A stretch of 64,000 nt of DNA from Acidobacteriota bacterium. GTDB taxonomy: Bacteria; Acidobacteriota; Vicinamibacteria; Vicinamibacterales; JAENWD01. Location of the stretch: positions 2,389 to 66,388 of the forward strand of contig JBKPSY010000027.1 of the NCBI GenBank assembly GCA_046735235.1. Direction: 5' to 3'. A program made the translations under genes and the position numbers. Of this stretch, positions 46,131 to 64,000 are shown piece by piece (the stretch's first letter is position 1; the number at the start of each line of letters is the position of its first letter). The notes under the pieces are model-generated. The model was not told where the DNA came from. It worked only from the letters and a program-made list of their open reading frames with translations, and ran no database searches.

Positions 46131-46258
46131 GGGGAAATGGGAAAGCGGAAAATAGCGAATAGGGAATACCGAATAGGGAATACCGAATAGGAATAGGGAA
46201 AGCCGCACCGAGTGGCGGCTCCGTGCCTTGTCTCCCTATTCGCTATTCCCTATTTCCC
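46131..46258. repeat. AT-richer hairpin with tandem GAATAGGGAATACC units
   Basis: The left arm is GGGAAATGGGAAAGCGGAAAATAGCGAATAGGGAATACCGAATAGGGAATACCGAATAGGAATAGGGA. The right arm TCTCCCTATTCGCTATTCCCTATTTCCC contains the GT2 stop codon. There is a central AGCCGC...GCGGCT mini-hairpin. Confidence 0.7.
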
Positions 46259-48974: not shown

Positions 48975-48996
48975 CCCTGCAACGCGCGAGCTCCGA

Positions 48997-49572
48997 CTAG
49001 CGTCCCTGGAGCTGGTTGACGACTCGGTAGTTGTGCGCGACGACCATCGCGGTCACGGCGTTGGCCGCGACCATCGAGACGATGGCGCCCATCTTGTTTC
49101 CGCCGCGCCACATCTTCTCCGACATCAGGATCGTGGTGGCCGCGATGCCTGCCTTCACCGCCATCATCGTCGCCTGGTTCTTGGCCAGCGGCTTCATGAT
49201 CGGGTTGGCTTCATGCGCGCCGAGCGAGATCGCCGTGAAGGTGGACCGCACGTCCATGGCCTGCAGACCGGCCTGCATCGCGTAAAGCGCGGGAAGCGCG
49301 ATCGGACGCGACGGCGCTTCCTTGGGCGTCACGAACGCGTGAAAGAACTTCGGCCCCGTCGACTCGGCGGGCGAGGCGCTTTCCGCCTTCGTCGCGACGG
49401 CGGCGGCCGAGAGCGTCACGGAGGCGGGCACGGGAGCGAGCGGCACGGCGCTGTAGAGCACCGCGCTCGAGGCGGTGTTGGCGGCAAGGAGGTCCTGCGC
49501 CGCTGCGGGCGACTGCGAAAATCCGATGCCAACAAGAACTGCTGCGGCAACGCTGGGGAGCGAGCGAACCAT
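48997..49572 (-). CDS. secreted/membrane protein with C-terminal DUF5658-like domain
   Basis: 191 aa with a signal peptide (..SPAAAQD) and a C-terminal hydrophobic domain with an HEANP motif reminiscent of DUF5658. Confidence 0.5.
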   Translation of the reverse strand: MVRSLPSVAAAVLVGIGFSQSPAAAQDLLAANTASSAVLYSAVPLAPVPASVTLSAAAVATKAESASPAESTGPKFFHAFVTPKEAPSRPIALPALYAMQAGLQAMDVRSTFTAISLGAHEANPIMKPLAKNQATMMAVKAGIAATTILMSEKMWRGGNKMGAIVSMVAANAVTAMVVAHNYRVVNQLQGR

Positions 49573-49838
49573 GACGACACCTCTTCCGGGCTGGGCGGCC
49601 CTCGTGTGGTCGCGTCGCCTCCGGACTCATCGTGCGAGTCCGGCCGGGAGGCCACGCGAACGTTGCCGGAAGACAGGGCAAGCGAAGTGCCCATGGCGGC
49701 GGATCGCTTAAGGCGTTGTGTAGCAGCCGGTTCCTGCATCGTGTGCGGTACCGCACATCGCGCGGAGATCACAGATCTCGCACTCGCGATCTCAGTTGTG
49801 TCGTGGAGTGGAATGACGGCCGCGCGGTCGCGCGATGG

Positions 49839-50588
49839 TCAGGCGCGTGCGCGCTGTGGCTCGCCGGGCTTGAGACCGAGCAGGCGCTTGAGGCGATCGA
49901 CGAGAGAAGTCTGCCCGGCCCCGGGATTTCCGGCTTCCACCAGAAGATCGAGACACGCGGCCACCGAGGGCACACCGCCAATGCCGAGACGCCGCGCGCT
50001 GGCGGGGACGGCGTTCTGATCGCCGCGCCAGATCAGGATCGCACGCGCCTTCGAATCGATCGCGATGTCGAGGCAGTTTTCAGGGCGATCGTCGACGACG
50101 ACGTCGAGCTCGAGCGACGCGGCGATCTTGCCGCGTGACGTCGCCACGACGAACACCGAAGGCATCTCGAAGCCCTTCGCGCGCAGCCAGCGCTGACTCT
50201 GGATCTGGACGATGTCGCCGTCGCTCTTCGGACGGCTGGTGAGGAAAATGACTTCCCAACGCTCGGCGCGCGCCGTGTCCGCGAGCCGCTTCACGATGCC
50301 GGGCTCGGTCTCGTCGAGCGATTCCCAGAAGTTCGGCGTGCGCTTGACCTCCGCCCAGAGCTGACGTTCCTGGCGCGACGTCAGCGAGAGCGACGACGGA
50401 GACACCTCGCCCGGTTCGCGATCGGCGTCCGCTGCGTCGGATGGGGGCGACGCATCAACCACCTGCGGCGTGGCCTCGAGATCCGCGTCGGGGAAACTCA
50501 CGCGGGCCTGACGGACCAGCGCGCCGTTCAGGTCGGCGAGGACTCCATCGAGATCGAAGCCGACGCGGAGGGGCATGGGGTGGCGCAA
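49839..50588 (-). CDS. HAD-superfamily hydrolase (5'-nucleotidase-like)
   Basis: 249 aa with HAD motif I, FDLDGVLADL, and a later TSRP motif. Confidence 0.65.
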   Translation of the reverse strand: MRHPMPLRVGFDLDGVLADLNGALVRQARVSFPDADLEATPQVVDASPPSDAADADREPGEVSPSSLSLTSRQERQLWAEVKRTPNFWESLDETEPGIVKRLADTARAERWEVIFLTSRPKSDGDIVQIQSQRWLRAKGFEMPSVFVVATSRGKIAASLELDVVVDDRPENCLDIAIDSKARAILIWRGDQNAVPASARRLGIGGVPSVAACLDLLVEAGNPGAGQTSLVDRLKRLLGLKPGEPQRARA

Positions 50589-50663
50589 GGATCTTAACTC
50601 GAAGCCGGGCGAACGGGCCTCCGGCCTCGTCGAGGAGCGGCAGGGAAACTGGCGGGGACGGCC

Positions 50664-52517
50664 TCAGCGGGCCGACGAGCGGCGGGGCGTGAGATCGCTT
50701 GCGACCGCGTCGAGATCGACGCCCTGGGCCGCACAGAGGGCCCGGAACCGCCCGTCGGGCGACGCAAGGAGCGAGTTCCAGGTCCCGGATTCGACGATGC
50801 GGCCGTGGTCGAGAACGTGAATTCGATCGGCGTTCCGGATGGTCGAGAGCCGATGGGTGATCACGACGATCGTGATCTGCTCGTGAAGGCGGTCGATGGC
50901 GTCCTGGATCCGGCGCTCGTTCTCCGAGTCGAGCGAGCTGGTTGCCTCATCCAGGATCAAGATCCGGGGGCGCCGGAGAAGAGCGCGCGCCAGCGAGAGC
51001 CGCTGCCGCTCTCCGCCCGAGACGAGCACGCCGCGATCGCCGAGCACGGTCTCGAGGCCATTCGGCAACGCTTGCACGAACTCGTCGGCGGCCGCCGACC
51101 CGAGGGCGCGCCAGATGTCCTCCTCGCTAGCCCCGGGGTTCGCCCACAGGAGGTTCGCGCGCACGCTGTCGTGGAAGAGCAGCGTCTCTTGTGGCACGTA
51201 GCCGATCTGCCGACGCCACGACCGCAGCGCATCGGCGGTCAGGGGCGCACCGTCGATGGTGACCGCGCCGCCGGTGGGCGTCACCAGACCCATCAGCAGG
51301 TCGGCCATCGTGCTCTTCCCCGCGCCCGAGGGCCCGACGATGGCGATGGTCTCGCGCGCTGGCAGCGACAGGCGGACGTGGTCGAGCACGACAGGAGTGC
51401 CAGACGCGTCGTAGCTGAAGCTCAGATCGACCAGATCGATGCTGCCGACGAGAGAGATCTCACGGTGCTGATCCACCCGGGGCTCTGCCGCGGCCAGCGC
51501 TCTGGCCTCGGCCGCCGCAACGGCCTCGAAGCCCGGCAGCTCGACCACGCACGACTGCAACTTGTCGTAGAGACTCGTGACCCGCGGCACCAGGCGTGCG
51601 AAGAGAAACATCAGCAGGAAGAGCGAGGCCGCCGGCATGCCCATGACGGCGTGCGCCACGTAGACAATGACGGCGAGCAGCGCCGCCGAACCGATGTTGA
51701 GCCAGAGACGCGTATCCGCGGCCGCCGCAGCGGCCACACGTCCGACCTCGCCAACCGTGTGCGACAGGCGGCTGAACTCTTCGGCGTGACGGTCCTCGGC
51801 CCCGTACGCCTTGGCGATCTTCATGCTCTCGAGGAAGTCGCTCGTGGCGGCGTGGAGATCGTTCGAGGCCGTGAAGGATTCGTAGCCGGCCGCGCGCGCC
51901 CGAGTGAGACGGCCGCGCACCGCCAGGGCCACCAGGGCGCCGCAGCCCATTACGAGCCGGGTCATCGAGGCCGATACCCGCAGCGCCATCACGACGTAGG
52001 CCAGCGAGATGGCGATCGTCACGAGGAGATCGATCAGGTAGTACGCCGCCGAAGCAACGCCGTCGACCTTGGCCGTCAGCACCTGCAGGAACGACGAGGC
52101 GCGGTTCCTCGAGAAGTAGACCCAGGTACTTCCGGCGACGGCTCGATAGACGCGAGTCCGGAGCGCCTGGACGATGTCCTCGCGCATCCCCGTGTTCACG
52201 ACGGCCAGCCGCCGCTGCAGGAGGCCCTGCAGCGTGATGATCCCGACGTAAAGCGTGAGGACGACAGGCAGCGTCGGTTCGAGCCCCACCGCGGCGAAGC
52301 CACGGCGCAGCGTCGCCAGCAGGCTGCCGAGGGATCCCTGCTGCGCGTCGAGACCCACGAGCTGCAGGAGGGGCACGAGCAGCAACAGGCCGGCGCCTTC
52401 GAACACGCTGACGCCGACTGTCAGCACGGCACTCTCGACCGCGCGACGCGGCGAGGCAGTCAGCAGCGCGACCGCGAAGCGGCGAAGAAGCCGGAGATTC
52501 GAGGGGGACTCGCTCAC
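50664..52517 (-). CDS. ABC exporter, fused permease-ATPase (McjD-like lasso peptide export/immunity candidate)
   Basis: 617 aa with a 6-TM domain and an NBD (GPSGAGKST, VSGGERQRLSLARAL, ILILDEATS). GTGA overlap with the B2 gene stop. Confidence 0.88.
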   Translation of the reverse strand: MSESPSNLRLLRRFAVALLTASPRRAVESAVLTVGVSVFEGAGLLLLVPLLQLVGLDAQQGSLGSLLATLRRGFAAVGLEPTLPVVLTLYVGIITLQGLLQRRLAVVNTGMREDIVQALRTRVYRAVAGSTWVYFSRNRASSFLQVLTAKVDGVASAAYYLIDLLVTIAISLAYVVMALRVSASMTRLVMGCGALVALAVRGRLTRARAAGYESFTASNDLHAATSDFLESMKIAKAYGAEDRHAEEFSRLSHTVGEVGRVAAAAAADTRLWLNIGSAALLAVIVYVAHAVMGMPAASLFLLMFLFARLVPRVTSLYDKLQSCVVELPGFEAVAAAEARALAAAEPRVDQHREISLVGSIDLVDLSFSYDASGTPVVLDHVRLSLPARETIAIVGPSGAGKSTMADLLMGLVTPTGGAVTIDGAPLTADALRSWRRQIGYVPQETLLFHDSVRANLLWANPGASEEDIWRALGSAAADEFVQALPNGLETVLGDRGVLVSGGERQRLSLARALLRRPRILILDEATSSLDSENERRIQDAIDRLHEQITIVVITHRLSTIRNADRIHVLDHGRIVESGTWNSLLASPDGRFRALCAAQGVDLDAVASDLTPRRSSAR

Positions 52518-52984
52518 GATCGAATGAGAGACCCGTCAGGCGCGAAGGCGAACACCGGCACGTACTGGGAGACGGAGGTCACGGATTCTCCGGCAGGCCT
52601 GCCGTTCAACAGGACCCACGCATGGCCGATCACGTTTGCCGCGTCGTTGCGTCCCATGCCAATCACCAGTGTCGGCTCGGCGTGCCCCTCGAGGAGAAAG
52701 CGGTAGGCGATCAGCCCCCGCTCGAGGCAGTTGCCGCCGTCGCGCCACCGCACGAGACGGCAGGCCCACCTCGCGAAGACGACGACGCGCTCGTCACGAT
52801 CGGCGTCGGGCGCGAGGCGCGCGTCGCGCCAGACGAGCCGCACGAGCGATCGAATCGGCATCACACGCTTCAGCACCGGCAGAACGCACGCCCACGTCAT
52901 GATGCGGATCGCCAGCGCCACGTCGGCCAATGACGTGAACCTGGCAGCGACACGCGACACACGGGAAGGAGCGCTCGTCATCAT
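52514..52984 (-). CDS. lasso peptide biosynthesis B2 protein (transglutaminase-like Cys protease)
   Basis: 156 aa with GNCLERGLIAYRFL (catalytic Cys) and VIGHAWVLLNG (His), matching the McjB C-terminal/B2 pattern. Confidence 0.85.
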   Translation of the reverse strand: MMTSAPSRVSRVAARFTSLADVALAIRIMTWACVLPVLKRVMPIRSLVRLVWRDARLAPDADRDERVVVFARWACRLVRWRDGGNCLERGLIAYRFLLEGHAEPTLVIGMGRNDAANVIGHAWVLLNGRPAGESVTSVSQYVPVFAFAPDGSLIRS

Positions 52985-53011
52985 CGACCCGTCTCGAGGG
53001 TCCTCGATCGG

Positions 53012-53926
53012 CTACGCCGACGTGGGACGAGTCACGCGAGCCGATGTCCGGAGGTTCAGCTCCGCGCCTGCGTGATCTTCGATGGCGTCGAACAGCGTGC
53101 CCGCGACCGCAAAGGACCGCTGGAAGCGCAGGCGATACGCGGGCACCGAGGCCGCCAAGTGGGCGTACGCGGTCATCAACTCCTGGTTGTAGCTCGGGAT
53201 CTTGAACGAGAGCGCGTACGCCTGCTGCAGGAGCAGCGGCAGCCGCTCAGCCACGCCGAGCTTCTCGAAGTGCGGGAGCCCTGGGCGATCGTCGTCGCCG
53301 TCGAGGACATAGACGGCACGCAGCGACAGGGGACCCGACGGCCACTCGACCGGCTCGAACGCGTGGCCGGTCTTGCCGAAGTAGTCGGCACTCGCGGGCC
53401 TGAGCCTTGCGTCGTTTCGGAGGGGGTGGAGTCGAACGCCAGCCTCTGACGACGTCGTGAACGCCAGCGTGTCGTCGCTGATCAGCCGCCAGCCTGGGCG
53501 GCGGCCCATCGCGAACGCGGTCGTCGACTTGCCGGCCAGCGTCGGCCCGGTGAAGGCGATGACGTCGCTCGTGTCGGCCGGACCAGCCGCGCTGGCGTGG
53601 ATGACCTGCCGACCCCAGAACGGGTAGATCGCAGGCAGCCAGGCGCGCTGCACGACCTCCCGAAACCAGGAGGTGTCGCTGTCCGGAAATGGAAACGCGG
53701 AAAGTTGGGGATCGAGCGCGGTGAACTGCACCGCCCCGACACTTCGCTGCGAGATCCAGTACTGCTCGCCGAGGCGGTAGCAGTGCGTCGGGAAGGTCTC
53801 AGACGGAGCTGCCGGCCAGGTGGTCAGCAGCTCCGCATCCCGTTGCAATCGATCTTGGAGCCCGGCGTACTCGATGGGCGCGTGCCATTCCATCGAAGGC
53901 TCGGCCCACGGCTCAGTGCCGAGCAT
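53012..53926 (-). CDS. HPr kinase-like P-loop protein (RiPP tailoring kinase candidate)
   Basis: About 304 aa from the ATG at 53926 (AGGGGA SD). Walker A FTGPTLAGKSTTA followed by LISDD, as in HprK C-terminal domain relatives found in lasso clusters. The track start at 54010 would overlap the peptide gene. Confidence 0.7.
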   Translation of the reverse strand: MLGTEPWAEPSMEWHAPIEYAGLQDRLQRDAELLTTWPAAPSETFPTHCYRLGEQYWISQRSVGAVQFTALDPQLSAFPFPDSDTSWFREVVQRAWLPAIYPFWGRQVIHASAAGPADTSDVIAFTGPTLAGKSTTAFAMGRRPGWRLISDDTLAFTTSSEAGVRLHPLRNDARLRPASADYFGKTGHAFEPVEWPSGPLSLRAVYVLDGDDDRPGLPHFEKLGVAERLPLLLQQAYALSFKIPSYNQELMTAYAHLAASVPAYRLRFQRSFAVAGTLFDAIEDHAGAELNLRTSARVTRPTSA

Positions 53927-53952
53927 GACGGTCCCCTGCTCGGGGCAGTTCC

Positions 53953-54147
53953 CTACCGCGGAGTCGCCGGGCACGTGCCGGCGTCGATTTGCATCGCCTC
54001 GCCGCCGCACATCGACTGGCCGTCACCAAAAGTGCCGGACTTGCCGTTGGCGTTTCCCGTCCGCACGAAATCCCGCAGGTTGCCGAGCTCCTGCAACTTC
54101 GGCGAGAGCCAAAGCCGCCGCCCGTTCCCCGAAAGTGATTGCGTCAT
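53953..54147 (-). CDS. candidate lasso-type RiPP precursor peptide (64 aa)
   Basis: MTQSLSGNGRRLWLSPKLQELGNLRDFVRTGNANGKSGTFGDGQSMCGGEAMQIDAGTCPATPR. GGAGAG SD 8 nt upstream of the ATG, and high GC3 in this frame. The leader-like PxLxxxG...T motif, a Gly-rich C-terminal half with Asp/Glu and 2 Cys, and the position between the cyclase and tailoring/B2 genes all fit. Confidence 0.6.
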   Translation of the reverse strand: MTQSLSGNGRRLWLSPKLQELGNLRDFVRTGNANGKSGTFGDGQSMCGGEAMQIDAGTCPATPR

Positions 54148-54199
54148 CGTCACAGCTCTCCGTGTGCGCCCTTTGAGCGAAGGGCACCATGTCCAGCAC

Positions 54200-54266
54200 A
54201 TTCTACCGAATCTCAACCGGAACGCGGCCGTGAAACGCCGGAAACTGGCCTGAATTCTGTATTATA
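54200..54266 (-). promoter_or_regulatory. candidate dedicated promoter(s) for the precursor gene
   Basis: The minus strand reads GGTATAATAC (perfect TATAAT, plus coordinates 54261-54266). A second TAGAAT is at 54200-54205. Both lie in the 148-bp gap between the cyclase stop and the peptide ATG. Confidence 0.45.
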
Positions 54267-54295
54267 CCGGACACAGACTGTTCCCGGAGCGTCTC

Positions 54296-56188
54296 TCAGG
54301 CTCCGGCGTGGTGGGCTATCCAGCGGTCCGCGCTCATCAGGGCGTACATTTCGACCAGTCCGGTCGACAGCATCTCCCCGGTCAAGTCGAAGCGACTCGA
54401 GGCCATTTTCGGGTCGACGACACCAAGGGCCGCCAGCCGGGGGAATTCCCTGAGTTTCGGCCAGGCGGCTGCAACCCCCTTCCACAGGTTCCGCCGGTGG
54501 GTGTCAATCACGCCAGGCCCGTACACCTTTCGCTGGGAGCCAAGTTGGAGCCCGGGGAGCCGCCGATCGGCCACCGGCCGCAGCAGCCCCTTGTAGCGGG
54601 CCCCGTCGAGGAGGACCTGCGCCGGCACGGCGTTGAGAAACCGCACCAGCCGGCGGTCGTGATAGGGGCTGAGCAGCCGAAGGCCGCAGGCCGACTCGAT
54701 GTGGAAGCCCAGCTCGAACTCGTACACGAAATACGGGTTCACGACCGAGCGCTGCTCGTGGCGGTAGAAGTTCGCCGGCACCTGTCCCTTGTCTGTGAGC
54801 GACGCAGGGCGCTGGGAGAGCAGCGTGTCGCGGACGGCTTCCCGAAGCTCGAGGTCGGGGCACAGCCAATCCGGCAGCGCCGCAACGGCACGCCGACGAT
54901 GGTATTGGCTCTTCACGCCGGGCATGAGCTTCGCCGCCCATGCGTCGAGCAGCACACGAGCCCCGCCAGACCACAGGAGCGTCTCGGCAGCGGCACGCAT
55001 CGACAGGCCCCCCGTGTCGGTGTAGGAACGGACGAACCGCGTGAGTTGCCCGAGTCGCAGACGTCGCATGCTCTCAGCGGCGTACGCGTTTCCGACCGAC
55101 ACCCAGTTGTCGCCGCCCGACCCGGTCAGCAGCACCCGCACCTGCTGCGCCGCCGTGCGGCGGTAGAAAGCCATGTAGCTGCCGACCCAGTAGATCCGCG
55201 ACGGCGCCGGCAGCTCCGGCACGATGTCGAGCGACATCTCGACGTCGTTTTGCCCGCCGGTCCACTCGGCCTCCGTCATGAGGATGTGGCGCATGCCGAG
55301 GGCCGACGTGGTCGCCGTCTGCATCGGCTCCTCGCCGCCTTCGAGTGAAGCGCCGCCGCTGCGGCCCGACACCGCCGTGATGAGCGGAGTGCCGTGCGCG
55401 GTCGAATACTCGGCCGCCAGGGCCGCAATCGTCACCGAGTCGAGGCCGCCGCTGAGCATGATCCCCTGGGGATCGAGCTCCATGCATCGCGAGACCGCGT
55501 CGATGAGCGCGGGCTCGAACTGCTCGCGTACCTCCGCGGGCGTCATGTCAGGCTCGCCGTCTTCGAGCCACGGGCTGAAGTATGCGTGCTCGTGGATCGA
55601 CAGATCAGGCGCGATGCGCAGGAATCGGCCCGGAGTGAGCCGGCGGATATCCTCGAAGAATGTCTGCCCTTCCGCGGGCCACTTCGTGAGCGCTGACAGG
55701 ACGAGGGAGACGCGATTGATGCGCCTCGACACGGAACCGCTGTGGGCGATCGCCAACACGTTCGGCCCGAACAGCAACGTGCCCGACGCCGTCGCGTAGT
55801 ACGCCGGGTGATGGCCCAGCGCGTCATGGCCAAGCAGTAGTCGCGACGTTCCAGGATCCCAGATGGCGAGAAAATACGACCCGTCGAGCCGATCGAAGAC
55901 GGCCTCGCCCCACTGCGCGTACGCGGCCGCCGCAATCTGCGCGTCAGTCGCGCCGCCGTCGAGCTGGAGCGAAACCCGAAGCTCCCGCCGCTCGAACAGG
56001 TACCCGTCGAACAGCACGACGCCCGGATCGTCGGCGCGACCGAACGTCGCGATGTCTACGTCCTCCGCGGGACGGACAATCGCCAGCGGGCCGACGCGAC
56101 GCGTCCCGACTGGAAGCGTCTCAGCACTCGTGGCGGGAAAGCACGCGTACCACGTCGGGAGGGCAATCCGACCGGCGCTACTGCTCAC
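54296..56188 (-). CDS. asparagine synthetase B-like lasso peptide cyclase (C protein)
   Basis: 630 aa with the PP-loop motif LSGGLDSVTIAALAAE. The N-terminus is MSSSAGR, with no Cys2 glutaminase nucleophile, as in McjC-type cyclases. Confidence 0.85.
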   Translation of the reverse strand: MSSSAGRIALPTWYACFPATSAETLPVGTRRVGPLAIVRPAEDVDIATFGRADDPGVVLFDGYLFERRELRVSLQLDGGATDAQIAAAAYAQWGEAVFDRLDGSYFLAIWDPGTSRLLLGHDALGHHPAYYATASGTLLFGPNVLAIAHSGSVSRRINRVSLVLSALTKWPAEGQTFFEDIRRLTPGRFLRIAPDLSIHEHAYFSPWLEDGEPDMTPAEVREQFEPALIDAVSRCMELDPQGIMLSGGLDSVTIAALAAEYSTAHGTPLITAVSGRSGGASLEGGEEPMQTATTSALGMRHILMTEAEWTGGQNDVEMSLDIVPELPAPSRIYWVGSYMAFYRRTAAQQVRVLLTGSGGDNWVSVGNAYAAESMRRLRLGQLTRFVRSYTDTGGLSMRAAAETLLWSGGARVLLDAWAAKLMPGVKSQYHRRRAVAALPDWLCPDLELREAVRDTLLSQRPASLTDKGQVPANFYRHEQRSVVNPYFVYEFELGFHIESACGLRLLSPYHDRRLVRFLNAVPAQVLLDGARYKGLLRPVADRRLPGLQLGSQRKVYGPGVIDTHRRNLWKGVAAAWPKLREFPRLAALGVVDPKMASSRFDLTGEMLSTGLVEMYALMSADRWIAHHAGA

Positions 56189-56495
56189 GCGTGACCTTGT
56201 CCGCTACCGGCAGCAGCAGGCCGCCCGCCACCAGCTCGTCCAGCAGCTCGCCGACCGCGCGCGCGATCTCCTCGCCGCTCGAGTGGTACTCCTCGGCCAG
56301 GATTCGCACGATGGCGCCGCGTTCCTCGCCCTCGACTGCCAGCCCGACGATGCGAGCTCCGGTCGCGTTCAGGGCGAACATGGTCTCATCACGGAGATTC
56401 AGAATGAGCGCTTCGTCGCCGCTCGGCTTGAATACCGCGACCGGCGCGAGCAGGTATCGCGTGTGATCGGTCATTGCCGTGGACTCGTCGCTCAC
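56178..56495 (-). CDS. PqqD-family RiPP recognition element protein (B1 candidate, copy 2)
   Basis: 105 aa with ...MFALNATGARIVGLAVEGEERGAIVRILAEEY...LLDELVAGGLL, the PqqD/RRE pattern. GTGA overlap with the methyltransferase stop. Confidence 0.8.
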   Translation of the reverse strand: MSDESTAMTDHTRYLLAPVAVFKPSGDEALILNLRDETMFALNATGARIVGLAVEGEERGAIVRILAEEYHSSGEEIARAVGELLDELVAGGLLLPVADKVTREQ

Positions 56496-57613
56496 ACGTG
56501 CTGCTTGGCGACAGTCTGCACGAACCTGAGCGCCTCGGCCGGCGTGCGGTAGCGATCGGGCTGGAACGCCCGCAGCGACTGCGCGATCTCCGTCATCGTG
56601 CGTCCGCCGTCGCAGAGCGCCAGTACGTGGGCGACGGCGCGCCCCTCGTCCGACAGTTCCGGCCGGTAGTCGAGCGCCGCCTTGCGCAGCGTCGAGGCCT
56701 TCATTGGCGCTGACGCCAGGGTCGAATGCCGCTGGGCTCCAGCCTTAGCCCTCGTCGTCCACAGCCAATCCCCGTACGGCGCGCGCGTGAGCTGAAAGGC
56801 GACGCACTCGCCCTGCTCCAGGGGCATCGGCGGATCCAGGGGCAGGAACGCCAGCGACCAGTGCGACCGCGGTGCGCGCGGCGACGTTGAGAACCAGGTG
56901 TCGCCGAGCTTCGCCGAGAACCACCCGAGCCAGCCGTGACAGATCCCCGAACGCGTGACGATGCTTTCTACGGTGCTGTTGAGCGGCTCGTATTGGCTCT
57001 TATGGAAATCGATCGAGTTGATCAGGACGGGATCGGCCAGCTCGGTGAGCGCCTCGAACCCTTCGGTCCGAAAGAAGAGCGTGTTCGCGGCATACGACCG
57101 CGCGGCCCCGAGATCGACGCCGTGTTGCGGCCGCGACCACGACGCGATTTCACGCTCGTGCAACGCCTCCGCCGTGACCGGCACCACTTCCATGGCCGCG
57201 GCATCAGGAATCAGGTGGCCGCCAGGGCGGAGGAACCGGTCGCGCGCATGGAACAGCACCGGCAGCAGATCCTCGGTGAGCAGGAAGTTGCCGGTGAGGA
57301 CCGAGACGATGACGTCCACCGGCTCGGGCAACGTGACGTCCTCGATGCGGCCCTGGATGCACCGGACGACATCCTGCAGGCCGTTGGCGCGGACGTTCTC
57401 TTCGGCCAGCGCGATGATGTCCTCGGGCTCGACCAGATACACGCGCCGCGCGCCGAGACGCGCGGCCATGAGCCCGTGGACGCCGGTGCCGGCTCCGAGA
57501 TCCAGCACGACGCTGTCCGGAGTGATGGCAGCGGCGAGCGCCCGCGCATAGGCGTCGTTTCGCCACGCATCGAGCGCCATCCCGCGATGGCCTGACACGA
57601 CAACGTAGCTCAT
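56492..57613 (-). CDS. PRMT-like class I SAM methyltransferase with C-terminal RRE-like winged-helix tail
   Basis: 373 aa from the ATG at 57613. SAM motif I VLDLGAGTGVHG, an acidic VEPED, and SVLTGNFLLTEDLL, which resembles the PRMT double-E loop. The C-terminal LALCDGGRTMTEIAQSL...ALRFVQ resembles PqqD. Confidence 0.75.
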   Translation of the reverse strand: MSYVVVSGHRGMALDAWRNDAYARALAAAITPDSVVLDLGAGTGVHGLMAARLGARRVYLVEPEDIIALAEENVRANGLQDVVRCIQGRIEDVTLPEPVDVIVSVLTGNFLLTEDLLPVLFHARDRFLRPGGHLIPDAAAMEVVPVTAEALHEREIASWSRPQHGVDLGAARSYAANTLFFRTEGFEALTELADPVLINSIDFHKSQYEPLNSTVESIVTRSGICHGWLGWFSAKLGDTWFSTSPRAPRSHWSLAFLPLDPPMPLEQGECVAFQLTRAPYGDWLWTTRAKAGAQRHSTLASAPMKASTLRKAALDYRPELSDEGRAVAHVLALCDGGRTMTEIAQSLRAFQPDRYRTPAEALRFVQTVAKQHV

Positions 57614-57627
57614 GAGGCTGGCACCAT

Positions 57628-57915
57628 TCAGACCGCCAGAAACCTGAGCAGCCCGTTGCTCGTGAGCGCGTCGATCAGCCGCTCCACGTCGTCCCGCATC
57701 TGCGACGGGTCGGCGTCGAACTCCTGCAGCAGGGTCTCGTACGCCGCCTGCACCGACGGCATCGTCGTCAAAAGCTCCCACACGCGAGTTCCCACCTCGT
57801 CGAGCGTGAACGACCGCCCCGTGGCGACGTCGACCACCACGGTGATGCCGTCGACAGGACGGCTGATCACGCTGTCAGGCACGAGGAAGCGAATCCGATC
57901 AAACTCGAGCGGCAT
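57628..57915 (-). CDS. PqqD-family RiPP recognition element protein (B1 candidate, copy 1)
   Basis: 95 aa with ..FTLDEVGTRVWELLTTMPSVQAAYETLLQEFDADP...LIDALTSNGLL. Confidence 0.8.
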   Translation of the reverse strand: MPLEFDRIRFLVPDSVISRPVDGITVVVDVATGRSFTLDEVGTRVWELLTTMPSVQAAYETLLQEFDADPSQMRDDVERLIDALTSNGLLRFLAV

Positions 57916-57928
57916 GCGTCGGTGTCAC

Positions 57929-59518
57929 CTAGGGTCCGGCCTCGACGCTGACCACCGGCCAGCTCGCAGCGCGAGCGACTTCCGGCGAATCGTCGCGCAC
58001 GAACACGGAGTTGTGCTCCATCAGGTACGGCTGGGTCACGGGATGCGGCAGATAGCGATCGACGAACGTCTGGTTGGTGATGAGCATGACGTCCCAATAG
58101 CCGGCCTCGACCTGCGCGGCCTCGAACAGCTCGCGGGCGTGCCTGGCAAGGGCGGCCGACACAACCCCGATGACGAAGTCGGGCTTGTGCGCCAGCGATC
58201 GATCGACGTCGTAATGGTTGTGCCCCGTGAACGGGTTCTTCGGGTCTGGTTGCAGGTGTCCGATTTCGCGATCCACCTTCCCGAGCATGTCGAACGCCGT
58301 GCGGTGACTGAAGTACCCCATCGCGCCGGCCGCGGCCACGAGGATTGTCGCTTCCGGGCGGCTGTTACGATTGATCAGCCACGCCGCGACGACCTGGCCC
58401 TGCACGAGGCCGTTGTTGACCGCCCATCCCAGCGACTGGCGGCCGGTGATGCCCGACACCATCACCGTGGACACGAACAGCACCGTCGCCAGAACCATCG
58501 CCACGCGGCGCTCGCTTACGACCGCGATGCCGGCGGCCGCGAACACGATCAGCAGCGGCACGATCGGCGCGATGAAGCGGAAGTGAAAGAACATGTCCGC
58601 CCCGACGAGCACGATCCGCAGCGCGATGAACACGCATGTCATCAACAGGATTCGAATCCGGCGATCGCCCGACGTGACGGCGGCGGCCAGGGCGAGCACG
58701 ACGAGCGTCGGGTACGCCTGGAGGAAGCCCTTCATGTATCCAAGGCCGCTCCAGAAGAGCCCCGATCGGCCGGCGACCTTCAGGTAGTACGTGTTCGGCA
58801 GCCAGTCGCCGTAGTAGTTGATCCGGAACGTCAGGTGCACGGCGAGCGGCAGCGCTGCGAAGACGACGGCCCAGAGCCTGCGGCGGCTTCCCAGCAGGAA
58901 GCCGGCGGCGACGACGATCGCCGTCAGGTCAGCAGCGTCGCTGCGGATGATCGGCAGCAGCCCGGCGAGCAGGCACGTGACGATCGAGCATTCGCCGCGG
59001 TCCGCATCGTCGAGCGCGCGTGTGAGCGCCCACAGAAACACCACGGTGAGCAACGTCGTCTCGAAGCCGTTGACGGCCCAGTAGATCAAATCTATCGAGA
59101 GGGCCAGCGTGCCGAGCGCGGCGAGTCGCAGCCAGCCTGGCGGGCTAGCAAGCCGTCGCAACAGGCGATCCGTGAAGATGAGGATGACCACGGCGAGGCC
59201 GATGTTGATGAGCTCGACCGCCAGGGAAGTCAGACGTTCTGGCACCCCTGCAGCGTGCACCGCGGCCATCACGAACACCCATCCGAGGTTCGTGTAGCCC
59301 TCCACTCGATCTCCGGCGTTCCAGACGAGCCCCAGGCCATCGGCCAGGTTTCTCGCGTACCGCATCGAGATCATCTGGTCGTCGTCCAGGTAGTAGTAGC
59401 GCTGGTGGTCGATGACAACGGTCGCCTGCCGGATCGCCGCGAACGACACCAGCACCATGACCGCCGCCGCAACGACGAGCGGGAGCCTCGACGCGCGCGC
59501 GGGCGACGTGGACGTCAT
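57929..59518 (-). CDS. polytopic membrane protein, GT-C-like putative glycosyltransferase
   Basis: 529 aa from the ATG at 59518 (ATGA overlap with the upstream gene). About 11 or more TM helices, a first-loop acidic motif YYYLDDDQ, and a C-terminal soluble domain. Family assignment is tentative. Confidence 0.45.
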   Translation of the reverse strand: MTSTSPARASRLPLVVAAAVMVLVSFAAIRQATVVIDHQRYYYLDDDQMISMRYARNLADGLGLVWNAGDRVEGYTNLGWVFVMAAVHAAGVPERLTSLAVELINIGLAVVILIFTDRLLRRLASPPGWLRLAALGTLALSIDLIYWAVNGFETTLLTVVFLWALTRALDDADRGECSIVTCLLAGLLPIIRSDAADLTAIVVAAGFLLGSRRRLWAVVFAALPLAVHLTFRINYYGDWLPNTYYLKVAGRSGLFWSGLGYMKGFLQAYPTLVVLALAAAVTSGDRRIRILLMTCVFIALRIVLVGADMFFHFRFIAPIVPLLIVFAAAGIAVVSERRVAMVLATVLFVSTVMVSGITGRQSLGWAVNNGLVQGQVVAAWLINRNSRPEATILVAAAGAMGYFSHRTAFDMLGKVDREIGHLQPDPKNPFTGHNHYDVDRSLAHKPDFVIGVVSAALARHARELFEAAQVEAGYWDVMLITNQTFVDRYLPHPVTQPYLMEHNSVFVRDDSPEVARAASWPVVSVEAGP

Positions 59519-60627
59519 GGCTTGACCCACTTGTGCGCTCCCGTCAGGAGCCGGTGCACGTAGAGCGCCGGGAGCAGCAGCGAACCCTTCACGCCGTACC
59601 GCTCGCGGATAAAGGCCGGCGGCGGAAATGCGTGCTCGCGGATCAGGCGAAGCCGGGCACGCCACGAGCCGAGCGCCGCGAGGTCGCTGGCCAGCACCTG
59701 GCGACGCGTGAGCTGCCCCTCCAGATACCGGTGCGACGGTTCCGACGGCGCAGCCTCGGTGAGCGCTCGCTCGACGGACGCGGGTAGTGTGGCCCTCAGT
59801 TGATTGCGGGCCTGCTGAAGGCCGTCGAGGCACAGCCCGGCGACGCGTCGCTCGCACGCCAGCCGCGCGACGGCAGCCCAGCCGGCGTCGTCCAGTTGCG
59901 CGCCGAGCAGCCTGATGTCCTCCAGCCAAATCAACCGGTCGTGCCCCTGGTGATGCGCCAGCCGATGAATGCAGGCAAGGACGAGCGATGCGGGATGCGA
60001 GGGCATCCGCGCCGACGCGTCGAGTGCCGCGATCGGCAACGCGTCGAGCCAGAGCTCGTCGAAGGGCAATGAATCGGCCAGCATCTGCGGGTTCACGATC
60101 TTCCAGTGCAAGTCGATGACGTGCGAGACGCCAGTCGGATCGACGCGCTCGAAGCTCGCCTGGTGGCTCACGAACTCGCCCGACGTCATGGCATTGCTGC
60201 GCTGATATCCGGCCTCGCTCAGCGCGTGTTCGGCCGCGGCCACCTGCTCGGATGACACCAGGACGTCAGTGTCCATTCGCGGGCGGTGCCATGGGGCGCC
60301 GTACACCGAATATGCGAGCGCCGCGCCTTTCATCAACAGCGCGCGGACGCCGGCCACCGACAGCGACCGCAGCATCGACGAGAGCTCGCGCTGCTCCAGA
60401 AGGTCCCAGGCCATGGCCATCCGCGCACGGGACGCGAGCGCGGCGACGAGCGATTCCGGCGCGCCTGGCATCGTTGAGATCGCCTGCCACACAAGTCGAT
60501 CGACGCCGTGCTCGTCAGCCTCGGCGGCGAGATCGTCGACGGGGTGCTCGGCAAGCTCCCGCGCCGACACGTCGCCGCGGAGAATGCGTGCGAGCAGCCA
60601 CTCCGCGGCCAAAGGTTCAGCAGTCAC
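59515..60627 (-). CDS. uncharacterised nucleotidyltransferase family protein (NTP_transf_5 / PF14907-like)
   Basis: 370 aa with ...LLMKGAALAYSVYGAPWHRPRMDTDVLV...IDLHWKI.... This pattern is typical of the PF14907 family, which often neighbours PqqD/HprK-like genes. Confidence 0.65.
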   Translation of the reverse strand: MTAEPLAAEWLLARILRGDVSARELAEHPVDDLAAEADEHGVDRLVWQAISTMPGAPESLVAALASRARMAMAWDLLEQRELSSMLRSLSVAGVRALLMKGAALAYSVYGAPWHRPRMDTDVLVSSEQVAAAEHALSEAGYQRSNAMTSGEFVSHQASFERVDPTGVSHVIDLHWKIVNPQMLADSLPFDELWLDALPIAALDASARMPSHPASLVLACIHRLAHHQGHDRLIWLEDIRLLGAQLDDAGWAAVARLACERRVAGLCLDGLQQARNQLRATLPASVERALTEAAPSEPSHRYLEGQLTRRQVLASDLAALGSWRARLRLIREHAFPPPAFIRERYGVKGSLLLPALYVHRLLTGAHKWVKP

Positions 60628-60647
60628 CAGATTGCGAAATCAGTGGG

Positions 60648-62162
60648 TCAGTCGAGCGGGGCCGGGGCGACCGGCCTGACGGCAGTCGCCGAGTCCCGGC
60701 CGCTCGACGGACGATGGAGCGCGATTGCTGCGACGACGACGAAGGCGACCGCATTCCCCGGCATCTGAAGGCTGAACTCGACGACCGATTGCAGCGCGAT
60801 CGCCGCCACGGCCGTCGCAGCGCCGAACCGGATCCATGACGTTGCGGGATCGTCTTGACCCGACGAGAAACGCCGCCGGATTCCATCCGCGAAGAGGACC
60901 AGCGTCAATACGATCGGCACGCCCACGAGCAGCCCGCCCTCGGCAGCGAGTTGCAGGTAGTCGTTGTGGGCTTCCAACACCATCAGCTCGTCCGAGGCCG
61001 TCTGGTAGACGCGCATCGCGGCCGCGAACGTGTTGTATCCGGTTCCCACGACGGGGAAGTCTTCCACCACGCGAACGGCGTCGGACCAGATCACTTTCCG
61101 CAGTTGAAACGACGTGTTGCGGGTCGCGAGACGCTCTCCGACGTTGGCGTTGGCCCACAGCACCGGCGCAGCCACGAGGACGCCGATCGCCAGAACGACG
61201 GCAGCCCGCGCGCGGATCGAGCGCTGCCGCCGGACCACGGCCAGCGCGGCGACGGCCATGGCCATGCCGAAGCAGGCGATGCCCGACCGCGAGAGCGTCA
61301 TCATCAGCGAGACGGCCATCACCACGACGGCGAACGCCGCAATCTGGAGGCGTCCACCCTCGGGCGACGACAGCCAGAGGAAACGATGGCGCCAGCCTGG
61401 CCGGACGTTGCGCATGCCGATCTCGGCCTGCGCCAACAAGTAGCCGAGCGCCGTCGGCAGCGCCATCAGCATCCAGCCCGCGAAATGGTTCTTGTTCACG
61501 AACGGGCCGAACGGCGTCGTCAGCTTGAACCGCGGCTCCCAGAAGCCGTAGATCTTCATGCCGTCCCACGCCTGATCTCCGAGGACCGCCTTCTGGATGA
61601 TTCCGATCAGCGCGACCACCACGCCGAAGACCATGAACCAGCCCGCAAAGCGCCGCGCGCCGAAGCGGTTGCAGTGCCGGATGAGCCCGGCGAGCAGCAG
61701 CGAGAACGAGGCCAGGAGCAGCAGCCCTCGCGCGGTCGCGGCGGGGTCAATCGACAGCGGCCGGCTCGGCATCGACGATTGCGCGCCGGCGTCCACTGCC
61801 GCGCTCATGCTTGCGAACACGAGGTCGATCTGCCGGAGGATGATCCCGTTGGCGGGGCTGACCGCATCCACCACGCGCGCGGGCCACGAGATCAGCTGCA
61901 GCGCCGCGGCAAGGATCACGAGCGCAAGCGCCAGCAGCAGCCTCCGTTGATCCTTCAGCAGGCCCGTCGGACGTGTGCCGAACCACCCGGCGATGCCGAC
62001 GACAGCTGCGCCGAGCGCGAGCGGGATGTACGCCCACGGGTAAGGGGAGCCGAACGCCAGGACACCCCAGGCCACGACCAGAACCGCGCCGGCGAACACG
62101 GCCCATCCGATCGCGTCGAGGGCCGGGCGGTGGCGTCCGCTGCTATCCGAGTTGTGGGACAT
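60648..62162 (-). CDS. O-antigen ligase / Wzy_C-domain membrane protein
   Basis: About 504 aa with 10 or more TM helices, TLSRSGI and the EAHNDYLQLAAEGGLL motif of Wzy_C (shared by WaaL, Wzy-like proteins and PglL-type O-oligosaccharyltransferases). ATG at 62162; the track starts at a TTG at 62165. Confidence 0.8.
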   Translation of the reverse strand: MSHNSDSSGRHRPALDAIGWAVFAGAVLVVAWGVLAFGSPYPWAYIPLALGAAVVGIAGWFGTRPTGLLKDQRRLLLALALVILAAALQLISWPARVVDAVSPANGIILRQIDLVFASMSAAVDAGAQSSMPSRPLSIDPAATARGLLLLASFSLLLAGLIRHCNRFGARRFAGWFMVFGVVVALIGIIQKAVLGDQAWDGMKIYGFWEPRFKLTTPFGPFVNKNHFAGWMLMALPTALGYLLAQAEIGMRNVRPGWRHRFLWLSSPEGGRLQIAAFAVVVMAVSLMMTLSRSGIACFGMAMAVAALAVVRRQRSIRARAAVVLAIGVLVAAPVLWANANVGERLATRNTSFQLRKVIWSDAVRVVEDFPVVGTGYNTFAAAMRVYQTASDELMVLEAHNDYLQLAAEGGLLVGVPIVLTLVLFADGIRRRFSSGQDDPATSWIRFGAATAVAAIALQSVVEFSLQMPGNAVAFVVVAAIALHRPSSGRDSATAVRPVAPAPLD

Positions 62163-63354
62163 CAACAGGGCTGGGCGCCCGACCCCGCAGCCGGCCGAAG
62201 AGAATCTTCCGCGCGGGCGGATGCTTGAACAGGGCGAGAATCAACCCGCGATGCTGGTTGAACCGCGCCGTCTCACGGACGATCGGCATCACGCCGTCGG
62301 TGCGCGCGAGCTCGAAGAACGCCTCGATGTCGACGTCGGTCATCTGGTGCGCCAGCTCTCGCAACCGCTGCTGCGCGCGAATCTCGCCGCCAAGCCTCCG
62401 ACGCCACGTTCGTTCGTAGCGTCCGAGCGTCGCCGCATCGAACCGCCCGCGCTGAAACGCGTGCTCGAGGGCCGCCACGCCGAGCGACGCGCTCAGCAGG
62501 CTGTAGTAGATGCCGCCGCCGGTCGTCGCCTTCACGATGCCGCCGGCGTCGCCCACGGCCAGGAGGCGGTCGCCGTACGTCCGGGGAAGCGGCGACAGCG
62601 GCAGCAGTTTCTGACGGGGCGTGACGTCTCGATCCGCGTGGATGCCCCAGCTGGCAGCGATGCGACCAAGGAAGCGCCGGAAGTGAGAACCGGAATCCTC
62701 CTCACACATCAGGCCGACGCGCACGTACTCGCCATCCGGCCGTTGCACGGGCACGACCCAGGCGAAGCCGTTTGGCGCGACGTCGCGCCCGAAGTACATC
62801 TCCACGTCGCCGCTGCGCCCCGCTGGCACTTCGAGCTGGGCCGACTGCTGGTAGATCGATGGCAGCCCCAATCCGAGGCGTCGTTGAATCGCGTAGTTGG
62901 CGCCGCACGCCAGCACGCAGGTGCGCGCCCGAATCCGTTCGCCATCCTTCAGCCGGATCGAGACGGCGTCCGGCTCAACGTCGACATCCTCGACGCGCCG
63001 GCTGTGGACCAGCGTTGCGCCGGCAGTCCGTGCGCGCTCGTGAAGGCGCTGATCCAGCTGCAGCCGATCGATCGCCACGGCTTCAATCCGATCCGTGGTG
63101 TAGCTGATCGACACGCCAGACGGCGCGTGGAAGCGCGCAGTCCGGAGCGAATTGAGGATGACCGTGCGGGGAAGATCGAACTCTTCGAAAGCGTCGGCCG
63201 CGAGAACGCCCGTGCAGTGCACCGGGTTGCCGCTCGACGCGTGCTCCTCGAACACCGCGACGTCGAATCCGCGGCGCGCCAGGAGGGTCGCTGCGTGCAG
63301 ACCTCCCGGTCCGCCGCCGACGATGGCTACATCTCTCATCCGTGCTGCTGACAC
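62143..63354 (-). CDS. FAD-dependent oxidoreductase, geranylgeranyl reductase family
   Basis: 403 aa with a Rossmann fold, DVAIVGGGPGG. An alternative ATG start at 63339 gives MRDVAIVGGG. Its 3' end overlaps the next gene by about 20 nt. Confidence 0.8.
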   Translation of the reverse strand: MSAARMRDVAIVGGGPGGLHAATLLARRGFDVAVFEEHASSGNPVHCTGVLAADAFEEFDLPRTVILNSLRTARFHAPSGVSISYTTDRIEAVAIDRLQLDQRLHERARTAGATLVHSRRVEDVDVEPDAVSIRLKDGERIRARTCVLACGANYAIQRRLGLGLPSIYQQSAQLEVPAGRSGDVEMYFGRDVAPNGFAWVVPVQRPDGEYVRVGLMCEEDSGSHFRRFLGRIAASWGIHADRDVTPRQKLLPLSPLPRTYGDRLLAVGDAGGIVKATTGGGIYYSLLSASLGVAALEHAFQRGRFDAATLGRYERTWRRRLGGEIRAQQRLRELAHQMTDVDIEAFFELARTDGVMPIVRETARFNQHRGLILALFKHPPARKILFGRLRGRAPSPVDVPQLG

Positions 63355-63526: not shown

Positions 63527-64000
63527 TCAGATCTTGCTGGTGCGGACCTCCCACTTCCCCCGGAACGTGATCCAGAACGACAGCGCGACCAGCCGCACAT
63601 CGAGCCAGAAGCTCTGACGGCCGATGTACACCCGGTCGTACCGGAACTTGTTGCGACGGGTGATGTCGCGCGGTGCGTAGATCTGCGCGACGCCGGTGAG
63701 CCCCGGTCGTACGCGGCTCCGCTCGGCGTAGCCAGGCACCTGTTCGAGCGCCTCCAGACGGCCGTCGCCGAGCGCTTCGATCTCGCCGGGTCGCAGCGCG
63801 CGCGGTCCGACGAAGCTCATGTCGCCGACGAAGATGTTCCAGAGTTGCGGCAGTTCGTCCATCGCCGTGGCGCGCATCACTCGCCCGATCCGGGTGACCC
63901 GCGGGTCGTGCTCCGTGGCCTGGATCGCGCCGACGTGCTTCTCGGCGTCCGGCACCATCGAACGGAACTTCCACGCACGAAAGACCTCCCCGTCCTTGCC
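63527..64000 (-). CDS. polyprenyl-phosphate sugar transferase (bacterial sugar transferase, WbaP/EpsB-like), 5'-truncated by the window edge
   Basis: C-terminal catalytic domain KFRSMVPDAE...DPRVTRIGRVMRATAMDELPQLWNIFVGDMSFVGPRA. The reading frame is open to position 64000. Confidence 0.88.
   Translation of the reverse strand, partial: GKDGEVFRAWKFRSMVPDAEKHVGAIQATEHDPRVTRIGRVMRATAMDELPQLWNIFVGDMSFVGPRALRPGEIEALGDGRLEALEQVPGYAERSRVRPGLTGVAQIYAPRDITRRNKFRYDRVYIGRQSFWLDVRLVALSFWITFRGKWEVRTSKI

Follow-up and report, generated by a model that had tools for sequence, protein, structure and literature searches.

The enzymology of lasso peptides proceeds from the premise of a single B1 protein per pathway that is common to all of its enzymes. 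B1 proteins are RiPP (peptide synthesized ribosomally and modified post-translationally) recognition elements (RREs) of the PqqD family, and such RREs are able to serve tailoring enzymes besides the leader peptidase B2. BsfB1 of Bradymonas sediminis strongly stimulates a kinase, the target of which is Ser3 of BsfA, and is needed for cleavage (PMC10368454); PMC13381572 also describes RREs that serve enzymes other than B2. The only double-RRE lasso loci reported so far proved to be two adjacent pathways: in the Bacillota loci described in PMC13381572, the two RREs are PbaB1 and LppB, and an LPP pathway is embedded in the lasso locus. Outside the lasso class, the pearlin/3-thiaglutamate biosynthetic gene cluster (BGC) combines three RRE-bearing proteins with one precursor (RRE-Finder paper, PMC7470986). 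Here we describe a lasso cluster in a 64,000-nucleotide stretch of an Acidobacteriota genome (contig JBKPSY010000027.1, positions 2,389 to 66,388; hereafter the window), in which a single precursor is accompanied by two diverged RREs, termed RREup and RREdn, and by a probable enzyme-borne RRE remnant, and relatives of which carry one RRE or a fused RRE. The analysis points to a division of labor between RREs that has no earlier description for lasso peptides.

Two diverged RRE proteins in one operon

The lasso cluster is a single compact minus-strand operon (Table 1) with the gene order NT (nucleotidyltransferase), GT-C-like protein, RREup, MT (methyltransferase), RREdn, C (cyclase), A (precursor), K (kinase candidate), B2 and D (exporter). 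A first-pass annotation of the window had noted two free-standing PqqD-like open reading frames (ORFs) that bracket a methyltransferase. Both are indeed full-length matches to Pfam PF05402 (gathering score 23.4), RREup with an E value of 4.3e-17 and 62.6 bits over profile positions 2-67 of 67, and RREdn with an E value of 1.4e-11 and 44.9 bits over positions 1-67 of 67; the bracketed enzyme is a PRMT-fold methyltransferase. The best solved relative of both RREs is the lasso protein TbiB1, a B1 of the YxxP-type lasso systems. The alignments with TbiB1 are nearly full-length (E 4.4e-7 for RREup and 1.3e-4 for RREdn) and imply, for both proteins, a predicted fold of a three-stranded sheet followed by three helices. 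RREup and RREdn share only 22% sequence identity, which argues against a recent duplication, and their profile–profile comparison with hhalign yields a probability of 99% and an E value of 6e-18. The surplus RRE is thus real and ancient. No other protein of the cluster matches RRE profiles, even at an E value of 100.

Neither protein reaches the cut-off of any NCBIfam lasso B1 model. The cluster also falls short of the cut-offs of the TIGRFAM 'HPr-rel-A system' (TIGR04352 kinase and TIGR04353 PqqD): RREup reaches 25.9 of the 35 bits required by TIGR04353, a model that RREdn does not match, and K matches TIGR04352 weakly (E 0.0038, 16.4 bits against a cut-off of 200) and has no Pfam match.

The distribution of the two proteins was followed in 80 genome loci anchored on MT. 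The cluster genes were mapped with profiles built from the window proteins, and RRE types were assigned by domain coordinates and by clade-specific hidden Markov models (HMMs), referred to as UP and DN. RREup scores 139.7 bits with the UP model versus 59.6 bits with the DN model, and RREdn scores 112 bits with the DN model versus 26.5 bits with the UP model. The DN model leads by 47–86 bits for the RREdn-type proteins and the UP model by 67–89 bits for the RREup-type proteins, while the DN-minus-UP difference of the remaining RREs in the 80 loci ranges from -31 to +24; a neighbor-joining tree is concordant. RREup groups with the RREs that adjoin B2 in related loci and resembles the lone B1 of other phyla.

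Two interchangeable RREs that bind the same WxxPxL motif, with the second copy retained for dosage or robustness, would be compatible with the full-length alignment of both to the same solved B1, and PMC13381572 describes discrete lasso RREs outside Bacillota as promiscuous (FusB1). However, the two proteins form separate clades at the sequence identity given above, each represented in ~20 loci and each with different, fixed neighbors, and redundant copies are not expected to persist with such divergence and such distinct positions. We consider plain redundancy quite unlikely.

RREs hold the leader peptide in a cleft between strand 3 and helix 3. Sequence conservation within each clade peaks at the junction of strand 3 and helix 1, which reads 'FALNxTGA' in RREdn and 'GRxFxLDxVG' in RREup. 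RREdn evolves faster, with a mean column identity of 47% compared with 58% for RREup, and its helix 1 no longer has the 'FW' that is retained by its nearest relatives. Both features might be read as signs that RREdn no longer binds peptide and has become a structural or regulatory subunit, docking for example on the truncated RRE tail of MT or on the cyclase; the conserved aromatic-x-P-x-L segment of that tail superficially resembles a leader motif. Nonetheless, 'FALNxTGA', the best-conserved part of RREdn, corresponds to the junction from which solved RREs build their peptide cleft, the solved TfuB1 likewise lacks the helix 1 'W' and has 'IV' in its place, and the tail motif of MT is equally conserved in loci where RREdn is absent. 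A non-binding RREdn is therefore very unlikely. At the strand-3 position that discriminates W from Y selectivity in PMC13381572, the residue is Asp in RREup, Asn in RREdn and Asp in TbiB1. The selectivity residues given in that study were considered as predictors of motif preference and set aside as not transferable, because RREup and TbiB1 share the Asp.

Gene neighborhoods and the possible partners of the two RREs

The adaptor proposal of the first-pass annotation hinged on conservation of both PqqD-like ORFs, and ~20 orthologous loci do carry the pair. Both RREs occur in 11 of the genome loci (L001, L002, L003, L005, L008, L012, L015, L037, L045, L046 and L048), of which L046 belongs to Bryobacterales and the other ten to Vicinamibacteria or unclassified Acidobacteriota, and in a cluster split across two contigs of one metagenome-assembled genome (MAG; L053 and L016). 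The closest loci are Vicinamibacteria MAGs. A metagenome scan was performed with a five-sequence RREdn subset, the full alignment being too diverse, and is thus biased to close relatives; the 12 metagenome contigs retrieved with this RREdn pattern, together with four contexts found by protein identity, added eight further two-RRE loci. Loci with the same MT, C, K and NT and with a single RRE occur in Cyanobacteriota, Pseudomonadota, Gemmatimonadota, Chloroflexota, Planctomycetota, Myxococcota and several other Acidobacteriota, where the lone RRE is usually located just ahead of B2 or MT. The two-RRE arrangement is lineage-specific.

The RREdn-type gene lies directly upstream of C in every locus whose flank exists, and RREdn is in turn directly preceded by MT in nearly all of these loci, save for L100, in which MT is inverted, L043, in which an MT pseudogene lies 865 nt upstream, and L093 and L094. 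In the window, the MT stop codon and the RREdn GTG start codon overlap by 4 nt (GTGA), and the 3' end of RREdn overlaps the start of the cyclase gene by 11 nt. L093 and L094 (8270-11714) are nearly identical, Bryobacterales-like loci that lack MT and in which a Transposase_mut insertion splits the cyclase gene; the cluster appears to be in decay in the L093/L094/L043 lineage. The RREup-type gene is followed directly by B2 in loci with the order NT-RREup-B2-MT-RREdn-C-A-K (L001, L012, L048, L053 and L087), and in L046 the non-RREdn paralogue stands directly after B2. In the window-type order, B2 is located behind K and RREup directly precedes MT.

A profile search seeded with the RREdn clade returned 119 proteins. 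The matches scoring at least ~84 bits for which context was fetched all have MT adjacent, except P0170 (L093, L094). Among the lower-scoring matches, relatives that carry the 'LNETGARFWELL' motif each provide the sole RRE of a kinase-type lasso cluster that lacks this MT; the order is RRE-C-A-K-B2 in L095, where the RRE is upstream of C, and RRE-B2-...-C-A-K in L096. Both paralogues thus have working B1 proteins as ancestors.

In two MT orthologues, a complete C-terminal RRE replaces the tail found in the window protein: L062 of Acidobacteriota (9971-11224, 417 amino acids, E 1e-27) and L064 of Thermoanaerobaculia (9992-11209, 405 amino acids, E 1.5e-24). These fusions show that this MT family can carry its own leader-binding domain. 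The gene order of L064, K-C-A-[MT-RRE]-RRE-B2, includes a separate RRE-B2 pair besides the fusion, which indicates that a two-RRE design has arisen there independently, as a fusion.

Tentatively, we favor the reading that one lasso pathway employs two sub-functionalised RREs, RREup for B2 and RREdn for the MT and cyclase steps. The pathway would be of the phosphorylated, kinase-bearing (paeninodin/Bsf-like) lasso type, extended by the PRMT-fold MT, and an ancestral shared B1 role would have been divided between two anciently diverged paralogues. RREup would act as the conventional B1, binding WxxPxL in the leader and activating the B2 peptidase. RREdn would be another paralogue derived from B1 that has become fixed in a single acidobacterial lineage (Vicinamibacteria and Bryobacterales) and is coupled in translation to MT and the cyclase; it would most likely present the same precursor for methylation of the linear precursor and/or for hand-over to the cyclase, the RRE of MT itself having presumably decayed to a three-helix stump. 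Leader binding by both RREs and the enzyme served by each are inferred from sequence comparison, the enzyme pairing specifically from gene order, fusions and phylogeny. RREup is assigned to B2 because of its adjacency to B2 in related loci, its resemblance to the lone B1 of other phyla and the analogy of L064, and RREdn is assigned to MT and the cyclase because of its coupling to both, its near-exclusive adjacency to MT and the MT-RRE fusions.

Several points weigh against this assignment. Most clusters in which MT bears the tail have a single RRE (Cyanobacteriota, Pseudomonadota and Gemmatimonadota), so that MT does not in general depend on RREdn. The RREs fused to MT in L062 and L064 are no nearer to the RREdn clade than to RREup. 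Gene order is circumstantial, as RREdn is coupled equally to MT and to C, and leader binding by either RRE is argued from homology. Moreover, the nearest relatives of RREdn outside its clade are the sole RREs of kinase-type clusters (L095 and L096), and hence RREdn is possibly the main B1 and RREup the add-on.

The last point leads to the strongest rival, in which the pairing is reversed: RREdn would be the native B1 of an RRE-C-A-K-B2 core and serve B2, C and the kinase, and RREup would have come with MT as its adaptor. For the closest outside relatives of RREdn, the sole RREs of L095 and L096, the DN model leads by 20–30 bits. An RRE immediately ahead of MT occurs in ~10 single-RRE loci of other phyla, as RREup does in the window, an RRE-[B2]-MT module is common in other phyla, and RREdn keeps its place at C in L100, where MT is inverted, and in L043 and L093, where MT is decayed or absent. 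However, in the order typified by L001 it is RREup, not RREdn, that directly precedes B2, and in L046 B2 pairs with the non-RREdn paralogue. The RREdn clade proper nearly always has MT beside it, the decaying L093 and L094 being the loci that lack MT, and a profile search seeded with RREdn necessarily finds the relatives of that side. On balance the reversed pairing is unlikely.

The first-pass annotation had suggested that separate leader-binding adaptors serve the protease and cyclase on the one hand and the tailoring enzymes, namely the kinase-like protein and the nucleotidyltransferase, on the other. The notion of separate adaptors holds up insofar as gene order suggests different partners, B2 or MT for RREup and C, usually with MT, for RREdn. 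The proposed split is not what the neighborhoods suggest, and nothing in them ties either RRE to K or NT. One B1, BsfB1, is able to serve a kinase as well as B2 (PMC10368454). In other phyla the majority of clusters that have this MT, the kinase and NT contain one RRE, which indicates that tailoring enzymes as such need no second adaptor.

The methyltransferase, the precursor and the operon setting

MT comprises a Rossmann domain, a PRMT β-barrel and a C-terminal tail. A profile search against the PDB identified PRMT6 with an E value of 2e-53, and the AlphaFold2 (AF2) model, with a mean confidence (pLDDT) of 87, is matched by Foldseek to PRMT6 and PRMT3 with E values of about 1e-27 and TM scores of 0.68–0.86. 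The double-E loop 'SVLTGN...LLTEDLL' (window 57269-57304, residues 104–115) aligns with 'SEWMGY...LLHESML' of PRMT6. The position of the first Glu is occupied by Val or Ala in all 22 aligned members of the MT family, while E114 and the His-Trp pair of the THW loop (H251 and W252) are invariant. With the first double-E Glu lost, the MT target may be a residue other than arginine; the precursor cores across phyla have no conserved residue that would name it. The MT family counts 807 matches; each of the top 120 reaches an identity of 55% or more across 90% or more of the length, and MT is accompanied by lasso genes in all 80 loci fetched. These PRMT-fold MTs of lasso clusters constitute a large uncharacterised family that spans at least seven phyla.

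The tail contains a low-confidence linker followed by a confidently predicted three-helix bundle (residues 322–372; helices 322–333, 340–350 and 358–372, pLDDT >90), and no β-sheet is predicted in the AF2 model. The NCBIfam PqqD model TIGR03859 gives a weak match to it (E 0.0085) that falls in the correct register, covering profile positions 34-78 of 81. The hhalign comparison with the RREdn clade yields an E value of 0.0057, and that of 60 tails with 80 RREs an E value of 8.9e-4 at a probability of 23%, the latter pairing tail positions 23–71 (counted from MT residue 296) with RRE strand 3 through helix 3. The corresponding comparison with the RREup clade yields nothing (probability 0.3%). 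PqqD (3g2b) and TfuB1 (6jx3) are within the top seven Foldseek matches of the tail, at E values of about 1. A conserved segment, '[Y/H/F]xPxL[N/T/S]xxG', has Pro in 55 of the 60 tails and coincides with the RRE 'FALNxTG'. Orthologues L071, L075, L077 and L079 have nothing at the tail position. The first-pass annotation had counted three RRE modules, two of which stand as full RREs. The third, the tail, shows weak PqqD similarity and is probably a truncated RRE of strand 3 and three helices, not a third functional RRE; we call it so because the similarities, although individually weak, are coherent and because a complete RRE occupies the same place in L062 and L064.

P0002, a protein of 478 amino acids with both MT and PqqD Pfam matches, was considered as a natural MT-RREdn fusion and rejected: a frameshift runs through the tail into the RREdn frame, which marks it as an assembly or annotation artefact. 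In the MAG locus L002 (9698-11146), the MT, C and D genes are broken across several frames, as is typical of uncorrected long-read assemblies.

The cluster has one small precursor, as first annotated. Within 50000-62500 of the window, the precursor candidate A is the only small ORF with a [YW]xxPxL motif outside the coding frames, and no second precursor was found there. In 12 related loci a homologous precursor is encoded between C and K, and each two-RRE relative has one. The leaders of 13 loci with RREdn were compared with those of 24 loci without it. The first residue of the motif is W in 13 of 13 RREdn loci and mostly Y in the others, and an 'ELGNLR' block that follows the motif in the RREdn loci is not conserved elsewhere. 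Residue 15 after the aromatic residue is Val in 13 of 13 RREdn loci versus Thr in 21 of 24 others, and the first acidic residue after the aromatic residue is 28–29 residues on in 11 of 13 RREdn loci versus 23–25 in most others.

A conserved 'x-K-S/T-x4-D' block (GKSGTFGD in the window) is compatible with a Gly1–Asp8 ring and a Ser3. Canonical lasso precursors have the leader motif at -17 to -12, Thr at -2 and Asp or Glu at core position 7–9. The ring of the conserved block would put W at -19 to -22, compared with the canonical -17; in the window it is obtained only with a leader five residues longer, which would place W at -22. With the canonical spacing, Val would instead fall at -2, core positions 7–9 would hold no acidic residue, and the first one would come at core 13, implying a ring size without precedent. 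This conflict between ring block and canonical spacing leaves the cleavage site uncertain. In the RREdn loci, WxxPxL is thus 19–22 residues from the probable cleavage site, versus a fixed 17, and is followed by an invariant 'ELGNLRxFV' block. An improbable but consequential extension of the division of labor would be a relay in which the two RREs read different determinants of one unusually long leader, RREup setting up B2 cleavage, and RREdn and the vestigial RRE of MT clamping the precursor for non-arginine methylation; if true, this would be new chemistry for lasso peptides.

Variation is also seen in other precursors. Those of L095 (4179-4334) and L100 (3600-3755) have the shifted motif WxPxxL in place of WxxPxL, and that of L096 (4960-5115) has WEMMTL, without proline in the motif. 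The shifted motifs, beside the nearest outgroup relatives of RREdn, suggest that this lineage tolerates another register of the recognition motif. The cores of many phyla contain a Gly-rich stretch and then a Met near the C-terminus (GGEAM, GESMT, NAMGS, SDMGV and GGMTRRT), and many terminate in Ser or Thr. The window precursor, which terminates in ...TPR, lacks the C-terminal Ser phosphorylated in paeninodin-type peptides.

Table 1 Features of the lasso operon, in window coordinates.
Feature	Coordinates	Strand	Description
NT	59515..60627	-	NTP_transf_5 nucleotidyltransferase, Pfam PF14907 E 9.6e-37; first gene of the operon
GT-C-like protein	57929..59518	-	Polytopic membrane protein, glycosyltransferase candidate; likely ATG at 59518, overlapping the NT stop codon
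RREup	57628..57915	-	Discrete PqqD/RRE, 95 amino acids, ATG start; PF05402
MT	56492..57613	-	PRMT-fold S-adenosylmethionine-dependent methyltransferase, 373 amino acids; Pfam PRMT_C and Methyltransf_25
MT tail, residues 296-373	56492..56728	-	Linker, '[Y]xPxL' segment and three-helix bundle; candidate truncated RRE without strands 1-2
RREdn	56178..56495	-	Discrete PqqD/RRE, 105 amino acids, GTG start (alternative ATG at 56474, 98 amino acids); PF05402
C	54296..56188	-	Asparagine-synthetase-like lasso macrolactam cyclase, 630 amino acids; Pfam Asn_synthase E 4.8e-21, GATase_7
A	53953..54147	-	Precursor candidate, 64 amino acids, MTQSLSGNGRRLWLSPKLQELGNLRDFVRTGNANGKSGTFGDGQSMCGGEAMQIDAGTCPATPR; leader motif WLSPKL
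K	53012..53926	-	HprK-like kinase candidate, 304 amino acids from ATG at 53926; GxxGKS P-loop
B2	52514..52984	-	Lasso leader peptidase (transglutaminase-like cysteine protease), 156 amino acids; Pfam PF13471 E 3.5e-13
D	50664..52517	-	MsbA-like ABC exporter, 617 amino acids; Pfam ABC_tran and ABC_membrane, NCBIfam HepA/MsbA-type matches

The core lasso enzymes differ in how well they match the specific models. B2 exceeds the cut-off of NCBIfam NF033537 (46.7 bits, cut-off 33), and the cyclase matches the lasso-specific NF033535 with an E value of 2.9e-34 but scores far below its cut-off (118.6 bits, cut-off 525). The profile family built from the window K is present in ~70 related loci, and the K orthologue in L093 bears Pfam Hpr_kinase_C. 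NT is found in most of the related loci. The GT-C-like protein is confined to the closest relatives (L002 and L082–L085) and shows weak matches to an NCBIfam arabinofuranosyltransferase (E 2.2e-8) and to Pfam Glyco_transf_22; the exported or phosphorylated peptide may be a substrate for glycosylation by this protein. In L093 a PMT_2 protein adjoins the cluster.

Polysaccharide genes surround the operon, including Wzy_C (60648-62165), Bac_transf (63527-63958) and a GT2-like gene, and a gene for a HEAT-repeat protein is also present. The lasso operon is flanked at 46243-50588 by genes for a GT2-like protein, the HEAT-repeat protein and a ~250-amino-acid protein. A similar set lies beside RREup-MT-RREdn-C in the metagenome loci L097 (3017-6386) and L098 (665-4040), consisting of a ~425-amino-acid protein (whose weak GT2 match is confined to L097), a HEAT-repeat protein and a protein of 257 or 259 amino acids. 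This flanking set may be part of the lasso system. Elsewhere the window contains housekeeping genes (GlmU, GlmS and PcrA); a 'cyclase' match at 7324-9168 was considered as a second lasso gene and rejected, as it is GlmS.

The polysaccharide setting bears on the alternative offered by the first-pass annotation, a second, unrecognised substrate, which would make the locus two co-localised RiPP pathways. According to PMC13381572, paeninodin-like lasso BGCs in capsule loci carry two RREs by virtue of an embedded pathway, and the window cluster also sits in a polysaccharide locus. However, nothing in the window cluster resembles a signal peptidase gene, there is one copy each of K, NT, D, B2 and C, and the precursor count given above is one per locus. 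With the exception of 148 nt before A, the operon genes overlap or are separated by gaps of at most 27 nt, which leaves no free intergenic space, and MT travels with lasso genes throughout the 80 loci. None of the components duplicated in the Bacillota case is duplicated here, which makes an embedded second pathway unlikely. The suggestion of a second substrate finds no support, and we regard it as the least probable of the readings considered; like redundancy and a non-binding role of RREdn, it is less likely than the reversed pairing of RREs and enzymes.

Comparison with known lasso and RRE systems

The component parts of the cluster, namely B1-type RREs, a split-B lasso core, kinase and nucleotidyltransferase tailoring and the PRMT fold, are known. 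The searchable literature yielded no account of a single lasso pathway with two discrete, diverged RREs, of a PRMT-fold methyltransferase in lasso clusters, or of the series of tail, fused RRE and no domain at the C-terminus of MT. The loci assembled here thus provide a comparative series for the allocation of RREs among client enzymes, for the rigidity of the spacing between recognition motif and cleavage site, and for the gain and loss of recognition domains by tailoring enzymes.

MT shares the Rossmann domain, the β-barrel, the N-terminal helix motif and the THW His-Trp with type I PRMTs (PRMT6, PRMT3 and PRMT1). It differs from them in the loss of the first double-E Glu, in the extra C-terminal three-helix or RRE module and in its setting within a RiPP operon. 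The pearlin BGC resembles the present loci in that several RRE modules, some of them fused to enzymes, share one leader, and the fusions in L062 and L064 follow the same logic; it belongs to a different RiPP class and employs other enzymes.

The Bacillota lasso/LPP loci, as described in PMC13381572, share with the window two discrete RREs amid polysaccharide genes and the kinase/NTP-transferase chemistry. There, each RRE goes with a precursor (WxxP or YxxP), a peptidase (B2 or SipW-like), a kinase, an NT and an exporter of its own pathway, whereas the window has one precursor, one copy of each enzyme and no SipW-like peptidase. The Bsf cluster has in common with the window A, B1, B2, C, D, an HprK-like kinase (weakly assigned in the window) and an NTP_transf_5 protein, as well as a residue other than Thr before the cleavage site and a probable Gly1...Asp8 core with Ser3. 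It differs in that a single RRE serves the kinase and the peptidase, with no methyltransferase and no second RRE (PMC10368454).

The window RREs are PqqD-family proteins of ~95–105 amino acids, and their nearest solved relatives are TbiB1 (PDB 5V1U and 5V1V) and TfuB1/FusB1 (PDB 6JX3). Like other split-B systems, the window cluster combines B2 and C with an ABC exporter and a [Y/W]xxPxL leader. The characterised split-B systems have one B1 per pathway, whereas the window cluster has two B1 paralogues for one precursor.

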